Below, piece by piece: positions 14,605 to 21,105 of a stretch of 42,184 bases of DNA. The notes under the pieces are model-generated. The model made no database searches. It was not told where the DNA came from and saw nothing but the letters and a program-made list of their open reading frames with translations. A program made the translations under genes and the position numbers. Location: IMG/VR virus record IMGVR_UViG_2565956633_000005, positions 1 through 42,184 of that record; one strand, given 5' to 3'. The stretch's first letter is position 1. Every line of letters starts with the position of its first letter. This DNA comes from a virus. Taxonomy: Duplodnaviria; Heunggongvirae; Uroviricota; Caudoviricetes.

Positions 14605-16238
14605 TTTTCCTCCGGATCGGTAATGGTCTGGCTCGCAAACTGGTCAGCCTGTGCCCAGCTCGGAAGCGGTAATCCGCGTTTAAGACATGACTCAATTTCT
14701 CTCTGGCGCTGATCAAGCACTTCTTCCCAGTCTTCACCGACGTTTTCACCCACCTCAATCTCGAGGGTGGAAAGTCCGGCATCCAGACCAAGAATGGCGC
14801 CTTTTTTCTCTGCAACCGGATCCACCCAGCCGCGCCCTGGCCCCATCCAGCGCGCGCGAGAATACGCGGCTCTGGCGTCAACAAAATCAGGTGCGCCTGC
14901 GGGCAGGGGTAAATCCTCATTGTCGTGAACTTCTTCAACAAAGGCGGTGAGAATGGGCTGAGCGAAGCCGGTAGAAAAATCGTCCCGGCGGCGAGTCAGT
15001 GTTTTCCATGCCTCCAGCAACGAGGAGCGTGCAGAACTGTAGTTAACGTCAGACCAGTCCTGGGTGACCTGCTGTGGGGACAACCCTGTTCCTGAAGAAA
15101 AATTACGGAGAACAGCAGATTCGAAGACTTCAAAATTGCTGTAGGGCCGCGCCGCGTTAACCGTCGTGATTTTCTCACCAGGATAAAGAATGGGCATTCG
15201 GGCACCATTCTGAAGTGTCAGACGCCGATCGTTATGGAACTCAACACGCCCGTCCTGATAAGTGCCTAACTCCGACTCGTCATAGGTCTCGCCCAGGGCA
15301 GACTGAACCATCGCAGGGTCATAGGGTGACTCAATGTAAGCGGCGAATATGGCATTAAGAATTGCTGCCTCAAGCTCACTCTGGTCATACTTCACCAGCA
15401 TTTTCAGACGCTGAATAACCGGAGTCAGGATGCCGTTACCGCGGTGCTGCGCGCCACGCTCATGATCAAAATCGTGAACTACATGCGGGCGGCCCCAGTC
15501 AGTTTCACGCGGGATACGCTGCCACGTCATGGTTTTAGCCCCGCTCCACCAGTCACCGATATGGGCCTCCCTGATGTGGTAAGCAACCGGTGCACCGTCC
15601 GCATCAATTTCAACGCCACCACGGACATTTGGCATATCGAAATTCTGCTGAGGATTACTGAGGCGGTCAGGATCGACAATCTGTACCGTGGTGGCGTAAC
15701 GCCCTCTTCCGGGACCAAGCCTGTCAGTTCTGTACTGGAGAATGGCCAGAGCATCCCCGTCAATAAGCTTGTGACGAAATCCCAGGCGTAACATCTGCGA
15801 CACGGTGAGTTTTCGTTCAACATCACAATACCGGCCAGGATCGTTACTCCAGGTCCGCCAGTGCCCGTCCAGTGCTTTTCCGTACTCTTCCGCCCAGGAC
15901 GCATCAAACGCCTTGTTTCCGGTGATCATTCTGAGAACACGGTAATCGGGTTTCATGATGGGGCGGAAGTTGGCACCAACCGCATTATCCAGCAGACGTG
16001 TGACCGCACCGTTTGCCCAGCCGTCATTACGGACCAGATCGCGTGCGCGGGACACGATGCGATCCCGGTAAATGTTAATTTCATTGTCCGGGGACCACAG
16101 CGCGGGTTGCCAGTTCGCCAGTTGATCGCTGAAAGAGTCAGCTGCGTCATAAGGTACGCGGCTCCCCCCCACCAGCATAGAAGGACGCTGCTGTCGCAAC
16201 GGCTGCCCATCAGAGCCCAGTATCTGTACTTTATTCAT
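14601..16238 (-). CDS. portal protein (lambda gpB-like)
   Basis: 545-aa ORF between gpW and protease. Confidence 0.8.
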   Translation of the reverse strand: MNKVQILGSDGQPLRQQRPSMLVGGSRVPYDAADSFSDQLANWQPALWSPDNEINIYRDRIVSRARDLVRNDGWANGAVTRLLDNAVGANFRPIMKPDYRVLRMITGNKAFDASWAEEYGKALDGHWRTWSNDPGRYCDVERKLTVSQMLRLGFRHKLIDGDALAILQYRTDRLGPGRGRYATTVQIVDPDRLSNPQQNFDMPNVRGGVEIDADGAPVAYHIREAHIGDWWSGAKTMTWQRIPRETDWGRPHVVHDFDHERGAQHRGNGILTPVIQRLKMLVKYDQSELEAAILNAIFAAYIESPYDPAMVQSALGETYDESELGTYQDGRVEFHNDRRLTLQNGARMPILYPGEKITTVNAARPYSNFEVFESAVLRNFSSGTGLSPQQVTQDWSDVNYSSARSSLLEAWKTLTRRRDDFSTGFAQPILTAFVEEVHDNEDLPLPAGAPDFVDARAAYSRARWMGPGRGWVDPVAEKKGAILGLDAGLSTLEIEVGENVGEDWEEVLDQRQREIESCLKRGLPLPSWAQADQFASQTITDPEEK

Positions 16239-16509: not shown

Positions 16510-18633
16510 TTATTTCGGCAGGAGTTGCGATATTCGCTTACGTTTGACCGGCGCTGGTTCTTCAATAACCGCACCCGGCAGCTCGTAATTGATTTTTTCT
16601 TCCTGTCCAACTGGCGCTGGCAGGAACTTATCCGGATCGGCTTCGAGGTTGGCGGCCCGGACGTTGAGTTTTAACCCCATATGTTTGAGACCGCACAGCG
16701 CGGCATAGCTGTAAACGAGGCAGTCAAGCGCTTCGTTAGCTCGTCCTGGTATTGCTTCCCAGATACTGTACCGCTGCCCGGAAATGACTTTGTAAACCAG
16801 TCGCTCCGCCAGCAGCTGATTGAAGTACCCGAGATCGCGATCGTCAGGAAAATGCATATAACCCGCAGCGGCGGCGCCAGGTTTGGGTGGCTCAAGATGC
16901 AGGCGACCGCGTATCACGTCTTTCGCTGAGTTAACCCCCAGAATGACAGGGCGGAAACTGGCTTTGCTTTTCGATGATGGTCGTTTGGTCGGCCAGACAG
17001 GATTGCGTTTGCCTCCCTGTGCAGACTCCCCCTTAATTGCCCAGACACGACGGCCAAGACGCTCTTTGGCGAATTCGTATACCTTCTGCGTATGGTGGCC
17101 GCCGGAGTCCATGCACGTTGCCATGATATTCAGGCCGCGCCCGTCACCACGTCGCCAGATCTGTTTCAGGTATGCATCCAGTCGCTTCCAGGGTTCTTCC
17201 GTCTCAAGGTCACCATAAATAACGTCATGCGCGACCGACCACGATTCTTCATCTCTCCCCCAGCCGGTGATCGTAATTTCGAAGCGATCGTCCTGGGTAT
17301 CAACTCCAGCTGTTAACAATGCCACCCCGTCCGGAACGACGGCCGGAAATATTTCCCGGCGCGCCAGCAGAACATCAACAGGGAGCTGTTTCCCATGATT
17401 AGGTCGGTGCGGAAGCCCCATCTGGGTATTCCACCACGCCTGTTCCTTATCCGGATCGCCCTTCGCATCGATATATTTTTTCGCAATATCCGACGGCTTA
17501 TCTTTTTGCCAGGGGCTGAAAAGCTTGGATGCCTGGTACCCCGCGTGGTGGTTATCGACTGCCTCCTTTCCACAGGAGGGGCAGATTGCGCGATAGACCG
17601 CATGCCGTTCCGACTCTGACCATTGCCAGACCTTTTCAACGCTGCCCTCGTCTGCCGCCCGCCAGGCAAGGTCATAATCCATCAGCGGTGAGTGCCGCTC
17701 CCCGCAGCACTCAAATGGGCGCGTCTGATGCCATCGAATAGTGTGCAGAGCTCTGAGGCGCTGTCCTTCGGACCAGCCACTACCACAGCATTCGCAATAG
17801 AGCATCGCCGATTTAGTCAGGTGTTTATCTCCCTCTTTCGGCCACTGAACGTGTTTGAAAAAGTCGGGGAACTGGCGGTGGCCACAGTGCGGGCAAACCA
17901 CAGATGCCCGGCGCTGATCGGAGTCGGCGTAGCTGTCAGCAATGCGGCTCTCATCCTCCACCGTCGGCGAACAGGCGCGTACAGACAGCCAGGTCAGGCC
18001 AAATGTCGCTGTACGCTCTTCGGCCAGCGCAATTGGATCGCCTTCGCGGGTTATCGGGTACTTGTCCACTTCATCCGCCAGCAGGACACGAATCGGACGA
18101 CGCGCAAGGTTATCAGGGCTACCAGCACCCGCCAGCGCCAGAAATCCGCCAGTGAATGCCTTGTAAAGAATGGTTTCTTTCGAGCTTTTCTGTTTCGAAT
18201 CACCGATGATTTTACGCAGTACCGGCGTCACCCTTACCAGCGGGCTAATACGCTCTTTCGAAAACTGTTCAGCGGCTTCTTCTTTCGGCTGCAGCAGCAG
18301 TATCGGACAAGGATCGAGGTGGGCAAAATAGCCAAAAAGGTTTTCCAGCAGTGCTGTCTTCATCAACTGGGTACAGCACATTACAGTGATGATATGAACC
18401 CCGGACTCCGTCGCGGCAAGCATCGGTCCGCGGGCAATTTCTACCGTCGATGTTTCCCAGTTTCCCGAAGTGCTCCCAGCCTCTTTTGCCAGCTTACGAT
18501 AGTCATCTGCCCACTGCGGCACACTGATACGCGGCGGGGGTGTCCAGCCTTTGCGGACGCTTAATTCAAGACGCTCAATCTTCTGCCGGGTTAAACTCTG
18601 GCTCTCCGAGGACTGAGATGTGTTTGTGGACAT
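16510..18633 (-). CDS. terL: terminase large subunit (lambda gpA-like)
   Basis: About 707 aa; track start is TTG, ATG at 18631-18633 chosen. Confidence 0.85.
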   Translation of the reverse strand: MSTNTSQSSESQSLTRQKIERLELSVRKGWTPPPRISVPQWADDYRKLAKEAGSTSGNWETSTVEIARGPMLAATESGVHIITVMCCTQLMKTALLENLFGYFAHLDPCPILLLQPKEEAAEQFSKERISPLVRVTPVLRKIIGDSKQKSSKETILYKAFTGGFLALAGAGSPDNLARRPIRVLLADEVDKYPITREGDPIALAEERTATFGLTWLSVRACSPTVEDESRIADSYADSDQRRASVVCPHCGHRQFPDFFKHVQWPKEGDKHLTKSAMLYCECCGSGWSEGQRLRALHTIRWHQTRPFECCGERHSPLMDYDLAWRAADEGSVEKVWQWSESERHAVYRAICPSCGKEAVDNHHAGYQASKLFSPWQKDKPSDIAKKYIDAKGDPDKEQAWWNTQMGLPHRPNHGKQLPVDVLLARREIFPAVVPDGVALLTAGVDTQDDRFEITITGWGRDEESWSVAHDVIYGDLETEEPWKRLDAYLKQIWRRGDGRGLNIMATCMDSGGHHTQKVYEFAKERLGRRVWAIKGESAQGGKRNPVWPTKRPSSKSKASFRPVILGVNSAKDVIRGRLHLEPPKPGAAAAGYMHFPDDRDLGYFNQLLAERLVYKVISGQRYSIWEAIPGRANEALDCLVYSYAALCGLKHMGLKLNVRAANLEADPDKFLPAPVGQEEKINYELPGAVIEEPAPVKRKRISQLLPK

Positions 18634-19144
18634 GTTCAATCAGCACCTCTGTCATCCTGTCCGCCGGTACATCCAGATCAGCAGCCATTAGCGGCGCCAC
18701 CCTGGACGGCCAGTTAAGCCAGGCATCACGCTGTTGGCGAAAGGCGTTGAATAAAACCTCCTCGGCTGCTGTCAGCTCAATAAGCTGGCCGCTGTCTTTT
18801 TCATACTGCAGCTTTGCCTGCAGGGCCATGTAATTCTCGCGGATACGTCCCGCTTCCTCTCTCGAAAGATCTGCCCCTTCAGTGAGCATTATCTGGCGGA
18901 CAGTTTTATTGATTTCATCACCGTCATCATCGTTATCGCTAACGACGGGAGTTTTCTTTTTCTTCGCGTTCGAGGCGCGCGGGTCTTTGCCATCGCGGTT
19001 TTTCTTCAATGCCGCATCGCTGGCCTCTACGTCAATCAGGTCTCCGTCCATCACAATGAAGCGCCCGGCTTTAATCCACCGGCCAATTGTTTTGCGATCC
19101 ACACCTGAATGTTGTGCGTACTGACTCTGGTTCATCGTGGTCAT
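18575..19144 (-). CDS. terS: terminase small subunit (lambda Nu1-like)
   Basis: 189 aa, N-terminal HTH; overlaps terL start as in lambda. Confidence 0.75.
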   Translation of the reverse strand: MTTMNQSQYAQHSGVDRKTIGRWIKAGRFIVMDGDLIDVEASDAALKKNRDGKDPRASNAKKKKTPVVSDNDDDGDEINKTVRQIMLTEGADLSREEAGRIRENYMALQAKLQYEKDSGQLIELTAAEEVLFNAFRQQRDAWLNWPSRVAPLMAADLDVPADRMTEVLIEHVHKHISVLGEPEFNPAED

Positions 19145-19292
19145 GGGACATCACCTGGGACATTTTCTGGGGTGGGACATTCGCCTGGGACATTTTTGCC
19201 ATGTCCCACCAGAATGTCCCACTGGAATAAACTGGAATAGCCAGAGCTGGCGAGGTGTCCGTAATGATCGCCAGAGGTGGGACATGGGACAC
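19145..19292. repeat. cluster of GGGACAT heptamer repeats, candidate cosB terminase-binding sites
   Basis: GGGACAT at 19145, 19157, 19174, 19187, 19279; inverted ATGTCCC at 19201, 19214; GGGACAC at 19286; all just upstream of terS. Confidence 0.5.
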
Positions 19293-19434
19293 AAATCTGA
19301 AAGTTGTAGCTAGGAAAACACCGCGGCGCGCAATGCCCGTACCTTACAAAAGTCTCAGGAAGGACCCATTTTTTTAATGGCTTCGACCATTCGCTCCGAC
19401 TATGATTATTCCTATTCAATACAAGGAGAATGTA

Positions 19435-19938
19435 ATGGGTAACAATATAATCAAAATAACTTTCGTAGCCGCAGTGCTGGCATCACCAATTGCTCATGCC
19501 CAGTGGGTAACTAATACTGAAGATGACCTTTTCTCTGGTGGTAAGAAAGCAATGATGCTTGGCGAGGTTTCATCCGACAATGGCGCCATTGTGTTTGACT
19601 GCACTAAAGAAAAGCTATCGGCGGCATACGTTGAAATGGATAAAAGCACCGAATCACTATCAGAGGTACCAATGGACCTGATAATGAAGGTCGACGGGAA
19701 TACCGCAGTGAAGCTCGATGCTACCCTTTCAAGACGTAATGTTCAGAGCCTCCAGATTCAATCGGATGACGCGGACCAACTAAAAACAGTGCTTAAGCAG
19801 CTTCAGGGGGCGAAATCCAAAGTGTTAGTTGGTGTGCAAACAAAGGATGGCGGAAACCAGCATTCCATGTCAGCCAATGTTTCTGGATCGACAACTGCAG
19901 TAAACAGCTTCATAAAAGCTTGCGAAATTAACTTATAA
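19435..19938 (+). CDS. secreted protein of unknown function (moron, opposite strand)
   Basis: ATG at 19435 with AAGGAG RBS; signal peptide MGNNIIKITFVAAVLASPIAHA; lies between lysis genes and cos. Confidence 0.55.
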   Translation: MGNNIIKITFVAAVLASPIAHAQWVTNTEDDLFSGGKKAMMLGEVSSDNGAIVFDCTKEKLSAAYVEMDKSTESLSEVPMDLIMKVDGNTAVKLDATLSRRNVQSLQIQSDDADQLKTVLKQLQGAKSKVLVGVQTKDGGNQHSMSANVSGSTTAVNSFIKACEINL

Positions 19939-19948
19939 GTTACTGCTT

Positions 19949-20587
19949 TTATTTTGCCGTCCTGATGGCTTCTGCTATCGCCTGATTTAAAGCAGACGGT
20001 AGCAGTGCGTTCGCCATGGTACGGGCCCTATCCATATACCCCAGCACTGGAGTCACAGGTAGCGCATCACCAAACCGGATCAAAAGCTTTGGAGAACGCT
20101 GTTTACGTTTCGGTCTTCGCGTCCCATTAGCGGAGCGCTTGGCCCGTCGCTTCTTAGCTTTCATCGGTTTCTTACGCTGCCAGACAGCGTTAACGCCATC
20201 CACCTCACCTACGAATACATTTTCCTTTGCTTTGAGCTGAGAGAGCTTATTACGCGGCAGGTTGCCGTATTTATTAAGCTTTATGTCTTTCGGGTTAAGC
20301 AAAGCACTACCATTAAGCTTGTGCTCTCCGCCGAACTCGAAGGGTTCAAGGTAACCAGCAGCAGTATCACGAACAAACACCTTCGCACGAAGGCTGTTTT
20401 TCCTGGCACCAACTGACCCAACCGATTTAACTGTAAAAGGTGTTGGATTATCCAGATTCCGCTCAAATGCTGTTTTTTGGGCCGCTTCTATCTGGCGAAC
20501 CACTTTAGTCATAGCCTGGGCAGTCGCAAACGGTATTTGCTTCTGCAGCTGCTTTAGCTGCCGGGATAAATCCTTAAGCGTTGACAT
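19949..20587 (-). CDS. hypothetical protein with basic Lys/Arg-rich tract
   Basis: ATG at 20585-20587 with GGAGG RBS (MSTLKDLSRQ...). Confidence 0.45.
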   Translation of the reverse strand: MSTLKDLSRQLKQLQKQIPFATAQAMTKVVRQIEAAQKTAFERNLDNPTPFTVKSVGSVGARKNSLRAKVFVRDTAAGYLEPFEFGGEHKLNGSALLNPKDIKLNKYGNLPRNKLSQLKAKENVFVGEVDGVNAVWQRKKPMKAKKRRAKRSANGTRRPKRKQRSPKLLIRFGDALPVTPVLGYMDRARTMANALLPSALNQAIAEAIRTAK

Positions 20588-20637
20588 GGTTTCCTCCAAC
20601 ATTATCGAGCCACCTCTGGAAGTGGCTCTGTAATGCC

Positions 20638-21105
20638 TTACTTCAGGCACTGCGTGGTGATGTATTCCTGCAGCGCCCTCAGGGCTGTTTGGTCGCTGAG
20701 GATTCCGGATCGGATACCGAGAACGTTTCGTCCAGCAACTGCAGAGAGTTCGACGGTGGCATCATCGCCCATGCTGGAGGCGCCGGTGGTTTGGGTTGAG
20801 GCTGACACTGGACATTTGCCTTTGACGAGCACCCGACCACCATTATCAAGCTTGCGCTGCAGAGCATCATTTTCAGCTTTTGCATCGGCTAATTCCTTCG
20901 TGTATTTGGCATCGAGCGCTGCGACGTCTCTCTGACGGGTCTGCATGTCAGCGATGGTGTCTTTCGCCAGGCTGAGCTGCTCAGTCACTTTATCGCGCTG
21001 CCTTTTGAACTCGGTGGCGTTGTCATGGTAGTGGCTAGCCAACCATCCGAGACTGACTATCAGGCAGATCACAATGGCGCTGATAATGGTGGTTAATCGG
21101 CTCAT
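20638..21105 (-). CDS. Rz: i-spanin (Rz-like)
   Basis: ATG at 21103-21105 overlapping endolysin stop; N-terminal TM helix then coiled-coil-like region. Confidence 0.65.
20679..20885 (-). CDS. Rz1: o-spanin lipoprotein (Rz1-like), embedded in Rz in +1 frame
   Basis: 68 aa; lipobox-like ...LIMVVGC; Pro-rich ([12 protein letters not shown]). Confidence 0.6.

Follow-up and report, generated by a model that had tools for sequence, protein, structure and literature searches.

A predicted cos site with an array of eight-base-pair repeats beside the small terminase gene of an Escherichia coli prophage

What purpose is served by a dense array of short repeats lying immediately upstream of a pair of phage terminase genes? 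We addressed this question in a 42,184-bp stretch of viral DNA (the window), for which a first-pass annotation had reported at least eight copies of GGGACA(T/C) and read them as a probable cosB. A motif scan for GGGACAY returned plus-strand matches at 19145, 19157, 19174, 19187, 19279 and 19286 (the last being GGGACAC) and minus-strand matches at 19201 and 19214, so that the coordinates reported earlier were all correct in both orientations. Across the whole window the motif occurs nine times against a chance expectation of 8.7 +/- 2.9. The total is thus at chance level and the non-random signal is clustering: eight of the nine matches fall inside 19145-19292, with the ninth at 16049. About 0.04 matches are expected in 148 bp, which gives a Poisson probability for at least eight of ~1e-16, or ~5e-12 when corrected for position. 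Because a T stands before all eight array copies, we take the core unit to be 8 bp, TGGGACAT, of which seven exact copies lie in 19144-19285 and none in the rest of the window. Centre-to-centre spacings along the array are 12, 17, 13, 14, 13, 65 and 7 bp. Outside 19140-19295 there is a single GGGACAY, where a first-order model expects ~9 (P ~0.003) and second- and third-order models expect ~4.7 (P ~0.05). This scarcity is at most a weak hint that stray terS sites are avoided, and we do not rely on it given an expectation of only ~4.7 under the second- and third-order models.

The array belongs to a region directly 5' of terS and then terL, both on the minus strand. terL (16510-18639, given as the longest ORF; the true start may be a few codons inside) encodes a large terminase of the lambda gpA family, with Pfam matches to GpA_ATPase (2.8e-64) and GpA_nuclease (2.2e-78), and is named 'phage terminase large subunit family protein' in RefSeq. 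terS (18575-19144) encodes a 189-aa small terminase matching PHROG 57, 'terminase small subunit' (4.6e-36); nearly every source calls it 'hypothetical protein', and one UniRef entry calls it 'Terminase small subunit'. Rz, lysozyme and holin genes lie on the higher-coordinate, upstream side, giving the same gene order as in lambda (lysis, cos, terS, terL). Two further minus-strand ORFs, 19071-19292 (overlapping terS in a different frame) and 19141-19419, match nothing in Pfam or PHROG and are unannotated in RefSeq; they are artefacts, as the first-pass annotation had thought probable. Between the lysis cassette and the candidate cos region, 19949-20650 (minus strand) matches PHROG 1924, 'minor tail protein', an annotation we consider doubtful since this is an odd place for a tail gene; in Citrobacter phage phiNP this position is taken by a gene for a hypothetical protein, and its record note points to p72 of the Serratia phage vB_SspM_BZS1 (BZS1).

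Prophages in E. coli chromosomes match the window at 99.9% identity and combine lambda-like early genes with a contractile tail. Their head module is lambda-like (W, portal, protease, decoration and major capsid proteins), and the full intact set of head, tail and lysis genes is retained. Megablast and blastn searches of 50,697 phage records found no relative of the region, and relatives were therefore drawn from E. coli genomes, IMG/VR and GTDB genomes; nearly all IMG/VR matches are prophages within isolate genomes. Among isolated phages, the best TerL matches are BZS1 and phiNP at 48% identity, and none exceeds that value. The locus does not point to headful (pac) packaging, as TerL is of the gpA family and the nearest isolated phage has cohesive ends.

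Those cohesive ends provided the key to cosN, which the first-pass annotation had suggested might lie in a GC-rich segment at about 19320-19345. The segment is present as ACCGCGGCGCGCAATGCCCGTA at 19320-19341, which is also the conserved cosN core. In the BZS1 record (MT843275), the GenBank feature table lists GCATTGCGCGCC (bases 1-12) as the cohesive end on the left (cosL). These 5' 12-nt ends were found by PhageTerm and confirmed when the sequences of virion ends were set against a PCR product spanning the prophage cos (PMC7556043). A comparison with related cos phages, which had been proposed as a check, located the mapped BZS1 12-mer at 19325-19336 of the window (minus strand). Its surroundings are homologous too, with flanks that are identical or near-identical: with slashes at the nicks, the joined BZS1 ends read ...GGGTCCTTCCCTGCACTTTTGTAAAGCACGG/GCATTGCGCGCC/GCGTTCTG..CTAGCTA..., and the window minus strand reads ...GGGTCCTTCCTGAGACTTTTGTAAGGTACGG/GCATTGCGCGCC/GCGGTGTTTTCCTAGCTA.... 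By this homology, cosN of the window is predicted to give 12-nt 5' cohesive ends. The site is conserved in relatives from many Enterobacterales genera, and a GCATTGCGCG core together with GGGTCC recurs in most of 49 species-representative loci. The exact register may be offset slightly. BZS1 has G/GCATTGCGCGCC/G, and the flanks shared with lambda (TACG/.../CGCGG) and a symmetric 'CG/G' at both nicks favour /GGCATTGCGCGC/ at 19326-19337; since the lambda-shared flanks put the nicks 1 nt left of the BZS1 register, we give the register as +/- 1 nt. A literature search for the 12-mer GCATTGCGCGCC returned unrelated papers only. When contig ends were taken as a stand-in for virion ends, none of the contigs compared stopped at the expected ~190 nt upstream of terS. 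Three loci with 16-mer matches (L115, L137 and L165) proved to be chance matches.

Further upstream, a cosQ-like element, GGGTCCTTCC, occupies 19358-19367 (minus strand) and begins 31 nt before the predicted nick. Its heptamer GGGTCCT (19367-19361) stands at a distance of 31 nt in both the window and BZS1 and 30 nt in lambda, where the corresponding sequence is GGGTCCTTTCC; lambda cosQ is described as a highly conserved 7-bp site (PMC4669245). The element is invariant in our six-sequence alignment (A2). So is a block between cosN and cosB, TAGCTAG at 19307-19313 (CTAGCTA in the terS direction), which is identical in 6/6 sequences including Serratia BZS1 and Citrobacter phiNP and might be contacted by TerL or serve to set a spacing. 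Homology between the window and E. coli genomes ends at 19368, just outside cosQ, and a group of other E. coli prophages, among them the one we call L005, shares only 19293-19368 at 92-93% identity. Past the 19368 boundary, just outside cosQ, a plus-strand gene (19435-19938) has a 167-aa product whose N-terminus resembles a signal peptide (PHROG 19473, function unknown). The gene sits where bor does in lambda, and it looks like a moron (accessory gene) because relatives carry other cargo there.

Measured against lambda, the locus is alike in organization. Shared features are the cosQ-cosN-cosB-terS-terL order, a gpA-family TerL, GGGTCCT ~30 nt before the nick, nick flanks of the form TACG...CGCGG(N)TTTTC, a predicted nick-to-ATG distance of 192 nt (190 nt in lambda), repeat blocks in direct/inverted/direct arrangement and an R3-like block starting at about bp 45-50. 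The differences lie in the cohesive end itself (GCATTGCGCGCC versus GGGCGGCGACCT in lambda, with 3-5/12 positions matching by eye depending on register), in the replacement of three 16-bp R sites by clusters of 2-4 copies of an 8-bp motif, eight in total, and in a contractile tail, a terS outside Pfam Phage_Nu1 and a cos region without a consensus IHF site. Local alignment of the two cos regions scored 18 against a shuffle mean of 18.5, which is not significant; the best alignment falls exactly at the nick-flanking CGCGG(T)GTTTTC but, scoring at the shuffle mean, is a lead only. Taken with the 3-5/12 match of the ends, this makes the lambda resemblance one of positions and short blocks, and the predicted cosN assignment rests on homology to BZS1, not to lambda.

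We then read the repeats outwards from cosN, where their order is two direct, a spacer, two inverted and four direct. The pair nearest cosN, at the R3 position, spans 19278-19292 (minus strand; TGGGACAT at 19278-19285 and TGGGACAC at 19285-19292) and corresponds to bp 45-59 of the predicted virion chromosome; lambda R3 starts at bp 50 according to the literature. A 56-bp spacer with 54% GC follows at 19222-19277. The inverted pair at the R2 position (19201-19221, plus strand) consists of ATGTCCCA at 19201-19208 and 19214-19221 and is oriented opposite to the other six copies. The distal block at the R1 position (19144-19193, minus strand) holds four direct TGGGACAT copies, ATGTCCCA in the terS direction, at 19144-19151, 19156-19163, 19173-19180 and 19186-19193, and is 98% conserved in 69 relatives. 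Its first repeat (19144-19151) adjoins the minus-strand terS start (ATG, 19144-19142) and lies between the Shine-Dalgarno sequence and the ATG; the second overlaps the Shine-Dalgarno sequence. Within the spacer, beside the inverted pair, is a direct repeat of ACTGGAATA (two copies with 10-bp spacing, 19221-19239), highly conserved in TGGGACAT-class relatives and replaced by TATTCC in a second E. coli class. No match to the IHF consensus WATCAANNNNTTR was found in 19140-19370 with up to one mismatch allowed, and some relatives have AT-rich spacers. Given a spacer free of a consensus IHF site, the lambda bending model is not simply transferable.

The second class retains the layout with different letters. 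In L005, GGTAACA/TGTTACC replace TGGGACAT between the shared cosN segment and that prophage's own terS, in the order two direct by cosN, spacer, two inverted and three direct, the last abutting the ATG. Relatives in general share cosQ and cosN yet split into TGGGACAT or GGTAACA, the long layout having 3-4 final direct copies; GGTAACA-class relatives carry two inverted TGTTACC at the place of the window's inverted pair. In alignment A2, GTGTCCCATGTCCCA of the window shares columns with GGTAACAGGTAACA of BZS1, phiNP and L005. BZS1 and phiNP resemble the window in an identical 12-nt end, homologous cosQ, cosN flanks and CTAGCTA block, and a cosN-proximal repeat pair in the same alignment columns. 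They differ in having a short cosB, with three GGTAACA in 74 nt and terS beginning at bp 75, and in a terS whose N-domain is of another class and whose C-domain is unrelated (17% identical). Neither cosB nor Nu1 nor these repeats are mentioned in the BZS1 paper (PMC7556043). Long and short cosB among the window's relatives parallel a published distinction between complex cosB, described as R3-I1-R2-R1 in direct/inverted/direct orientation and found in lambda, 21 and Monarch, where terS begins at bp 191, and simple cosB, as in N15, where it begins at bp 89 (PMC4669245; PMC9026076). Two more distant loci, L187:659-988 (a Hyphomicrobiales MAG) and L188 (Sphingomonas), have a terS that is 36% identical, keep GGGTCCTTCC and GTAATTGCGCGCCGCG, and carry another inverted repeat before terS, GGTTGC...GCAACT, which may represent a third specificity class.

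To gauge constraint across the region, we computed a conservation footprint from 69 unique TGGGACAT-class sequences. Conservation is 98.3% at motif positions, against 81.7% in the remainder of cosB; the cosQ-like element reaches 99.9% and the 22-bp cosN core 94.9%, and beyond 19368 conservation falls to ~30-40%. These values bear on whether the array could have arisen neutrally, through local duplication while the prophage decays, with no current function. A duplication origin is suggested by a super-period of 30 bp, the distance between TCACCTGGGACATTTT and TCGCCTGGGACATTTT, and a decayed copy with no terminase genes does exist in an E. coli genome (L006). Neutral drift is nevertheless hard to square with motif positions at 98% and intervening DNA at 82%, with a motif and layout that persist in Morganella and Xenorhabdus at 44% terS identity, and with the full intact head, tail and lysis genes of this prophage. 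We regard a functionless array as scarcely credible. The repeats instead stand between cosN and terS, as the cosB reading requires, at the most conserved positions of the region.

If the repeats are cosB, TerS would be the protein that reads them. Its predicted fold opens with a winged-HTH-like domain at the N-terminus (~residues 1-50), continues through a basic/acidic linker that is disordered, and ends in a helical C-terminal domain. No Pfam family matched at E <= 0.01, the Phage_Nu1 profile included. By hhalign, residues 4-35 align to the lambda Nu1 wHTH (residues 3-34) with a probability of 69% and E of 4.5e-5. An AF2 model of moderate quality, built from 39 homologues (mean pLDDT 70, pTM 0.30), gives the N-domain a pLDDT of ~78 and a strand-helix-helix-wing-helix order. 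With Foldseek, this domain matched gpNu1 (1J9I) at probability 0.90 and target TM-score 0.57, with a weak E of 0.84; the top matches were Pukovnik Xis (probability 0.99) and BldC (0.82-0.89), and others included the TerS DNA-binding domains 7LWR and 7LW0 and an RppC/TerS complex. With Foldseek E-values of 0.1-1, the wHTH assignment is consistent with these data, which do not decide it. A PDB sequence search with the terS profile gave hints only (RppC, E 0.14; a TerS DNA-binding domain, E 1.5). The earlier label 'Nu1-like' accordingly stands at the level of fold and profile, by hhalign and Foldseek, and falls at the level of the Pfam Phage_Nu1 family.

Natural chimeras allowed us to ask which part of TerS goes with which repeat. 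Between the window and L005, the N-domain (residues 4-48) is 52% identical and the C-domain (residues 120-189) 96%, and the motif is different; between L005 and BZS1 the N-domain is 75.5% identical and the C-domain 17%, and both have GGTAACA. We extended this comparison to a species-level scan of 49 loci, one genome per species. TGGGACA repeats are present in 9/9 loci with the window-type N-domain (YAxHxGVDRKTIGRWIKAG...), among them Morganella and Xenorhabdus with terS 44% identical, and in 0/38 loci with the BZS1-type N-domain (FAKLHGVSRKTVTxWKxRGW...). GGTAACA is the top 7-mer in ~30/38 of the latter, and in most of the remainder either the contig supplies scant sequence upstream or there are no more than one or two copies. 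Two alphaproteobacterial loci have a third N-domain type and neither motif. The sequence comparisons thus support the view that the repeat motif follows the predicted N-terminal HTH domain of terS and not its C-terminal domain. The C-domain may instead be matched to TerL: both are near-identical when the TGGGACAT class is compared with the GGTAACA class of E. coli (the window and L005, whose TerLs are alike, have C-domains 96% identical), and BZS1, with a C-domain at 17%, has a TerL at 48% identity. Two claims of the first-pass annotation gain from this joint variation, namely a distinct terS specificity and the cosB reading itself, as the repeats are swapped for GGTAACA in the same layout where the terS DNA-binding domain differs.

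The pairing recalls lambda and 21, which have cosQ and cosN in common and differ in cosB R sequences and in the TerS recognition helix (PMC4669245). Work from the Feiss laboratory on lambda/21 and N15/Monarch offers a further likeness, long and short cosB within one specificity class. The difference is that our pairing comes from natural chimeras and joint variation, not genetics, and the window's motifs are unrelated to the R sequences of lambda, 21 or N15. The terS copies of E. coli, Kluyvera and Citrobacter are 100% identical, and identity stays at 99-100% when Enterobacter is included, so the module crosses genera. One assembly labelled as a Firmicute (Vagococcus sp. WN89Y; L178, NZ_JBQPOM010000071.1) has a terS 89% identical and a full TGGGACAT cos, and is probably contaminated or mislabelled.

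Joint variation with TerS also helps to weigh two other accounts of the repeats. They might be operators of a regulator acting on terS/terL or on the divergent plus-strand gene at 19435-19938. Repeats 1 and 2 do sit at the terS Shine-Dalgarno sequence and ATG, short direct and inverted arrays are typical of operators, and regulators such as BldC are among the Foldseek matches of the terS N-domain. However, a scan of 18900-20100 found no sigma-70-like promoter or terminator, the plus-strand gene is absent from relatives that retain the repeats, the motif varies in step with the N-terminal domain of terS but with none of the other genes nearby, and the position of the repeats relative to a mapped cosN fits R3/R2/R1. 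We consider an operator role highly improbable. Alternatively, cosN and cosQ could be real and the repeats bound by a host nucleoid protein, TerL or a separate phage protein, with TerS recognising something else. A host factor cannot explain two exclusive motifs in phages of the same hosts, and the near-identity of TerL and the terS C-domain across classes leaves only the terS N-domain tracking the motif; on the other side, the wHTH assignment comes from weak scores, and further conserved blocks exist (CTAGCTA and the two copies of TATTCCAG). On balance, we judge recognition by another factor to be improbable.

Together, these lines of evidence indicate that 19144-19367 is very probably the cos site of a lambdoid prophage with a lambda-type head and terminase and a contractile tail. 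In the packaging direction (minus strand), the predicted order is cosQ at 19367-19361, cosN at 19336-19325 and cosB at 19292-19144. The N-terminal winged-HTH domains of TerS would bind the eight TGGGACAT sites, grouped as an R3-like pair, the spacer, an inverted R2-like pair and an R1-like four reaching the terS start codon. Bound TerS would anchor the gpA-family TerL, which would then introduce staggered nicks at cosN and package in the terS direction, with cosQ serving termination at the next cos. The TGGGACAT motif and the TerS N-domain would form an exchangeable specificity cassette, for which sister phages substitute GGTAACA and the other N-domain on the same cosN and cosQ. We infer the physical binding, the nick positions in the window phage and the geometry of the complex from sequence comparison.

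How TerS might occupy such an array is a more speculative matter. The lambda mode relies on a tight wHTH dimer that spans an IHF bend to connect R3 with R2. Xis and BldC proteins, the top fold matches to the terS N-domain, are MerR-like wHTH proteins of direct-repeat arrays, and on short repeats in tandem they assemble head-to-tail. Their roles are those of regulators or of recombination directionality factors and not of terminases, and the likeness is at fold level with E >0.1. It is possible, though rather unlikely on present evidence, that TerS polymerises in the same manner on arrays of 8-bp sites spaced 7-17 bp apart, independently of IHF, and that wHTH plus array form a free specificity cassette on a widely shared cosN/cosQ. 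If so, unrelated prophages could terminate on each other's cos, and cos-only remnants or satellites such as L006 could be mobilised. L006:2800-3110 lies beside thiM in E. coli 2015C-4136CT1 (NZ_CP027550.1) and is a cos-like segment with GGGTCCTTCC, a cosN variant longer by one base (GGCATTGCGCGAGCGCGG) and ~10 GGGACAT/GGGACG copies that are arranged differently. Neither terS nor terL is present. No credible ORF lies on the terS side of its cos-like site, and we rejected it as the source of a satellite terS- or rpp-like gene. The segment may represent what is left at one end of a truncated prophage, or else a satellite that carries a cos and could be mobilised by TGGGACAT-class phages.

An element of this kind and its mechanism are well known, and the lambda paradigm is unchanged. 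For the predicted cosB recognition motif, TGGGACAT, we found no description in the accessible literature. For a prophage lineage distributed across Enterobacterales genera, the analysis provides a packaging site, predicted genome ends and a terS gene; it can be used to fix the start coordinate of such genomes and to predict which prophages or satellites may cross-package. The lineage also presents what appears to be a natural domain swap, in which two cosB motifs, each with its own TerS DNA-binding domain, are set on a shared cosN and cosQ. Because the swapped cosB/TerS classes share a near-identical TerL within E. coli, these prophages would offer a ready system for studying how the specificity of cos packaging evolves.
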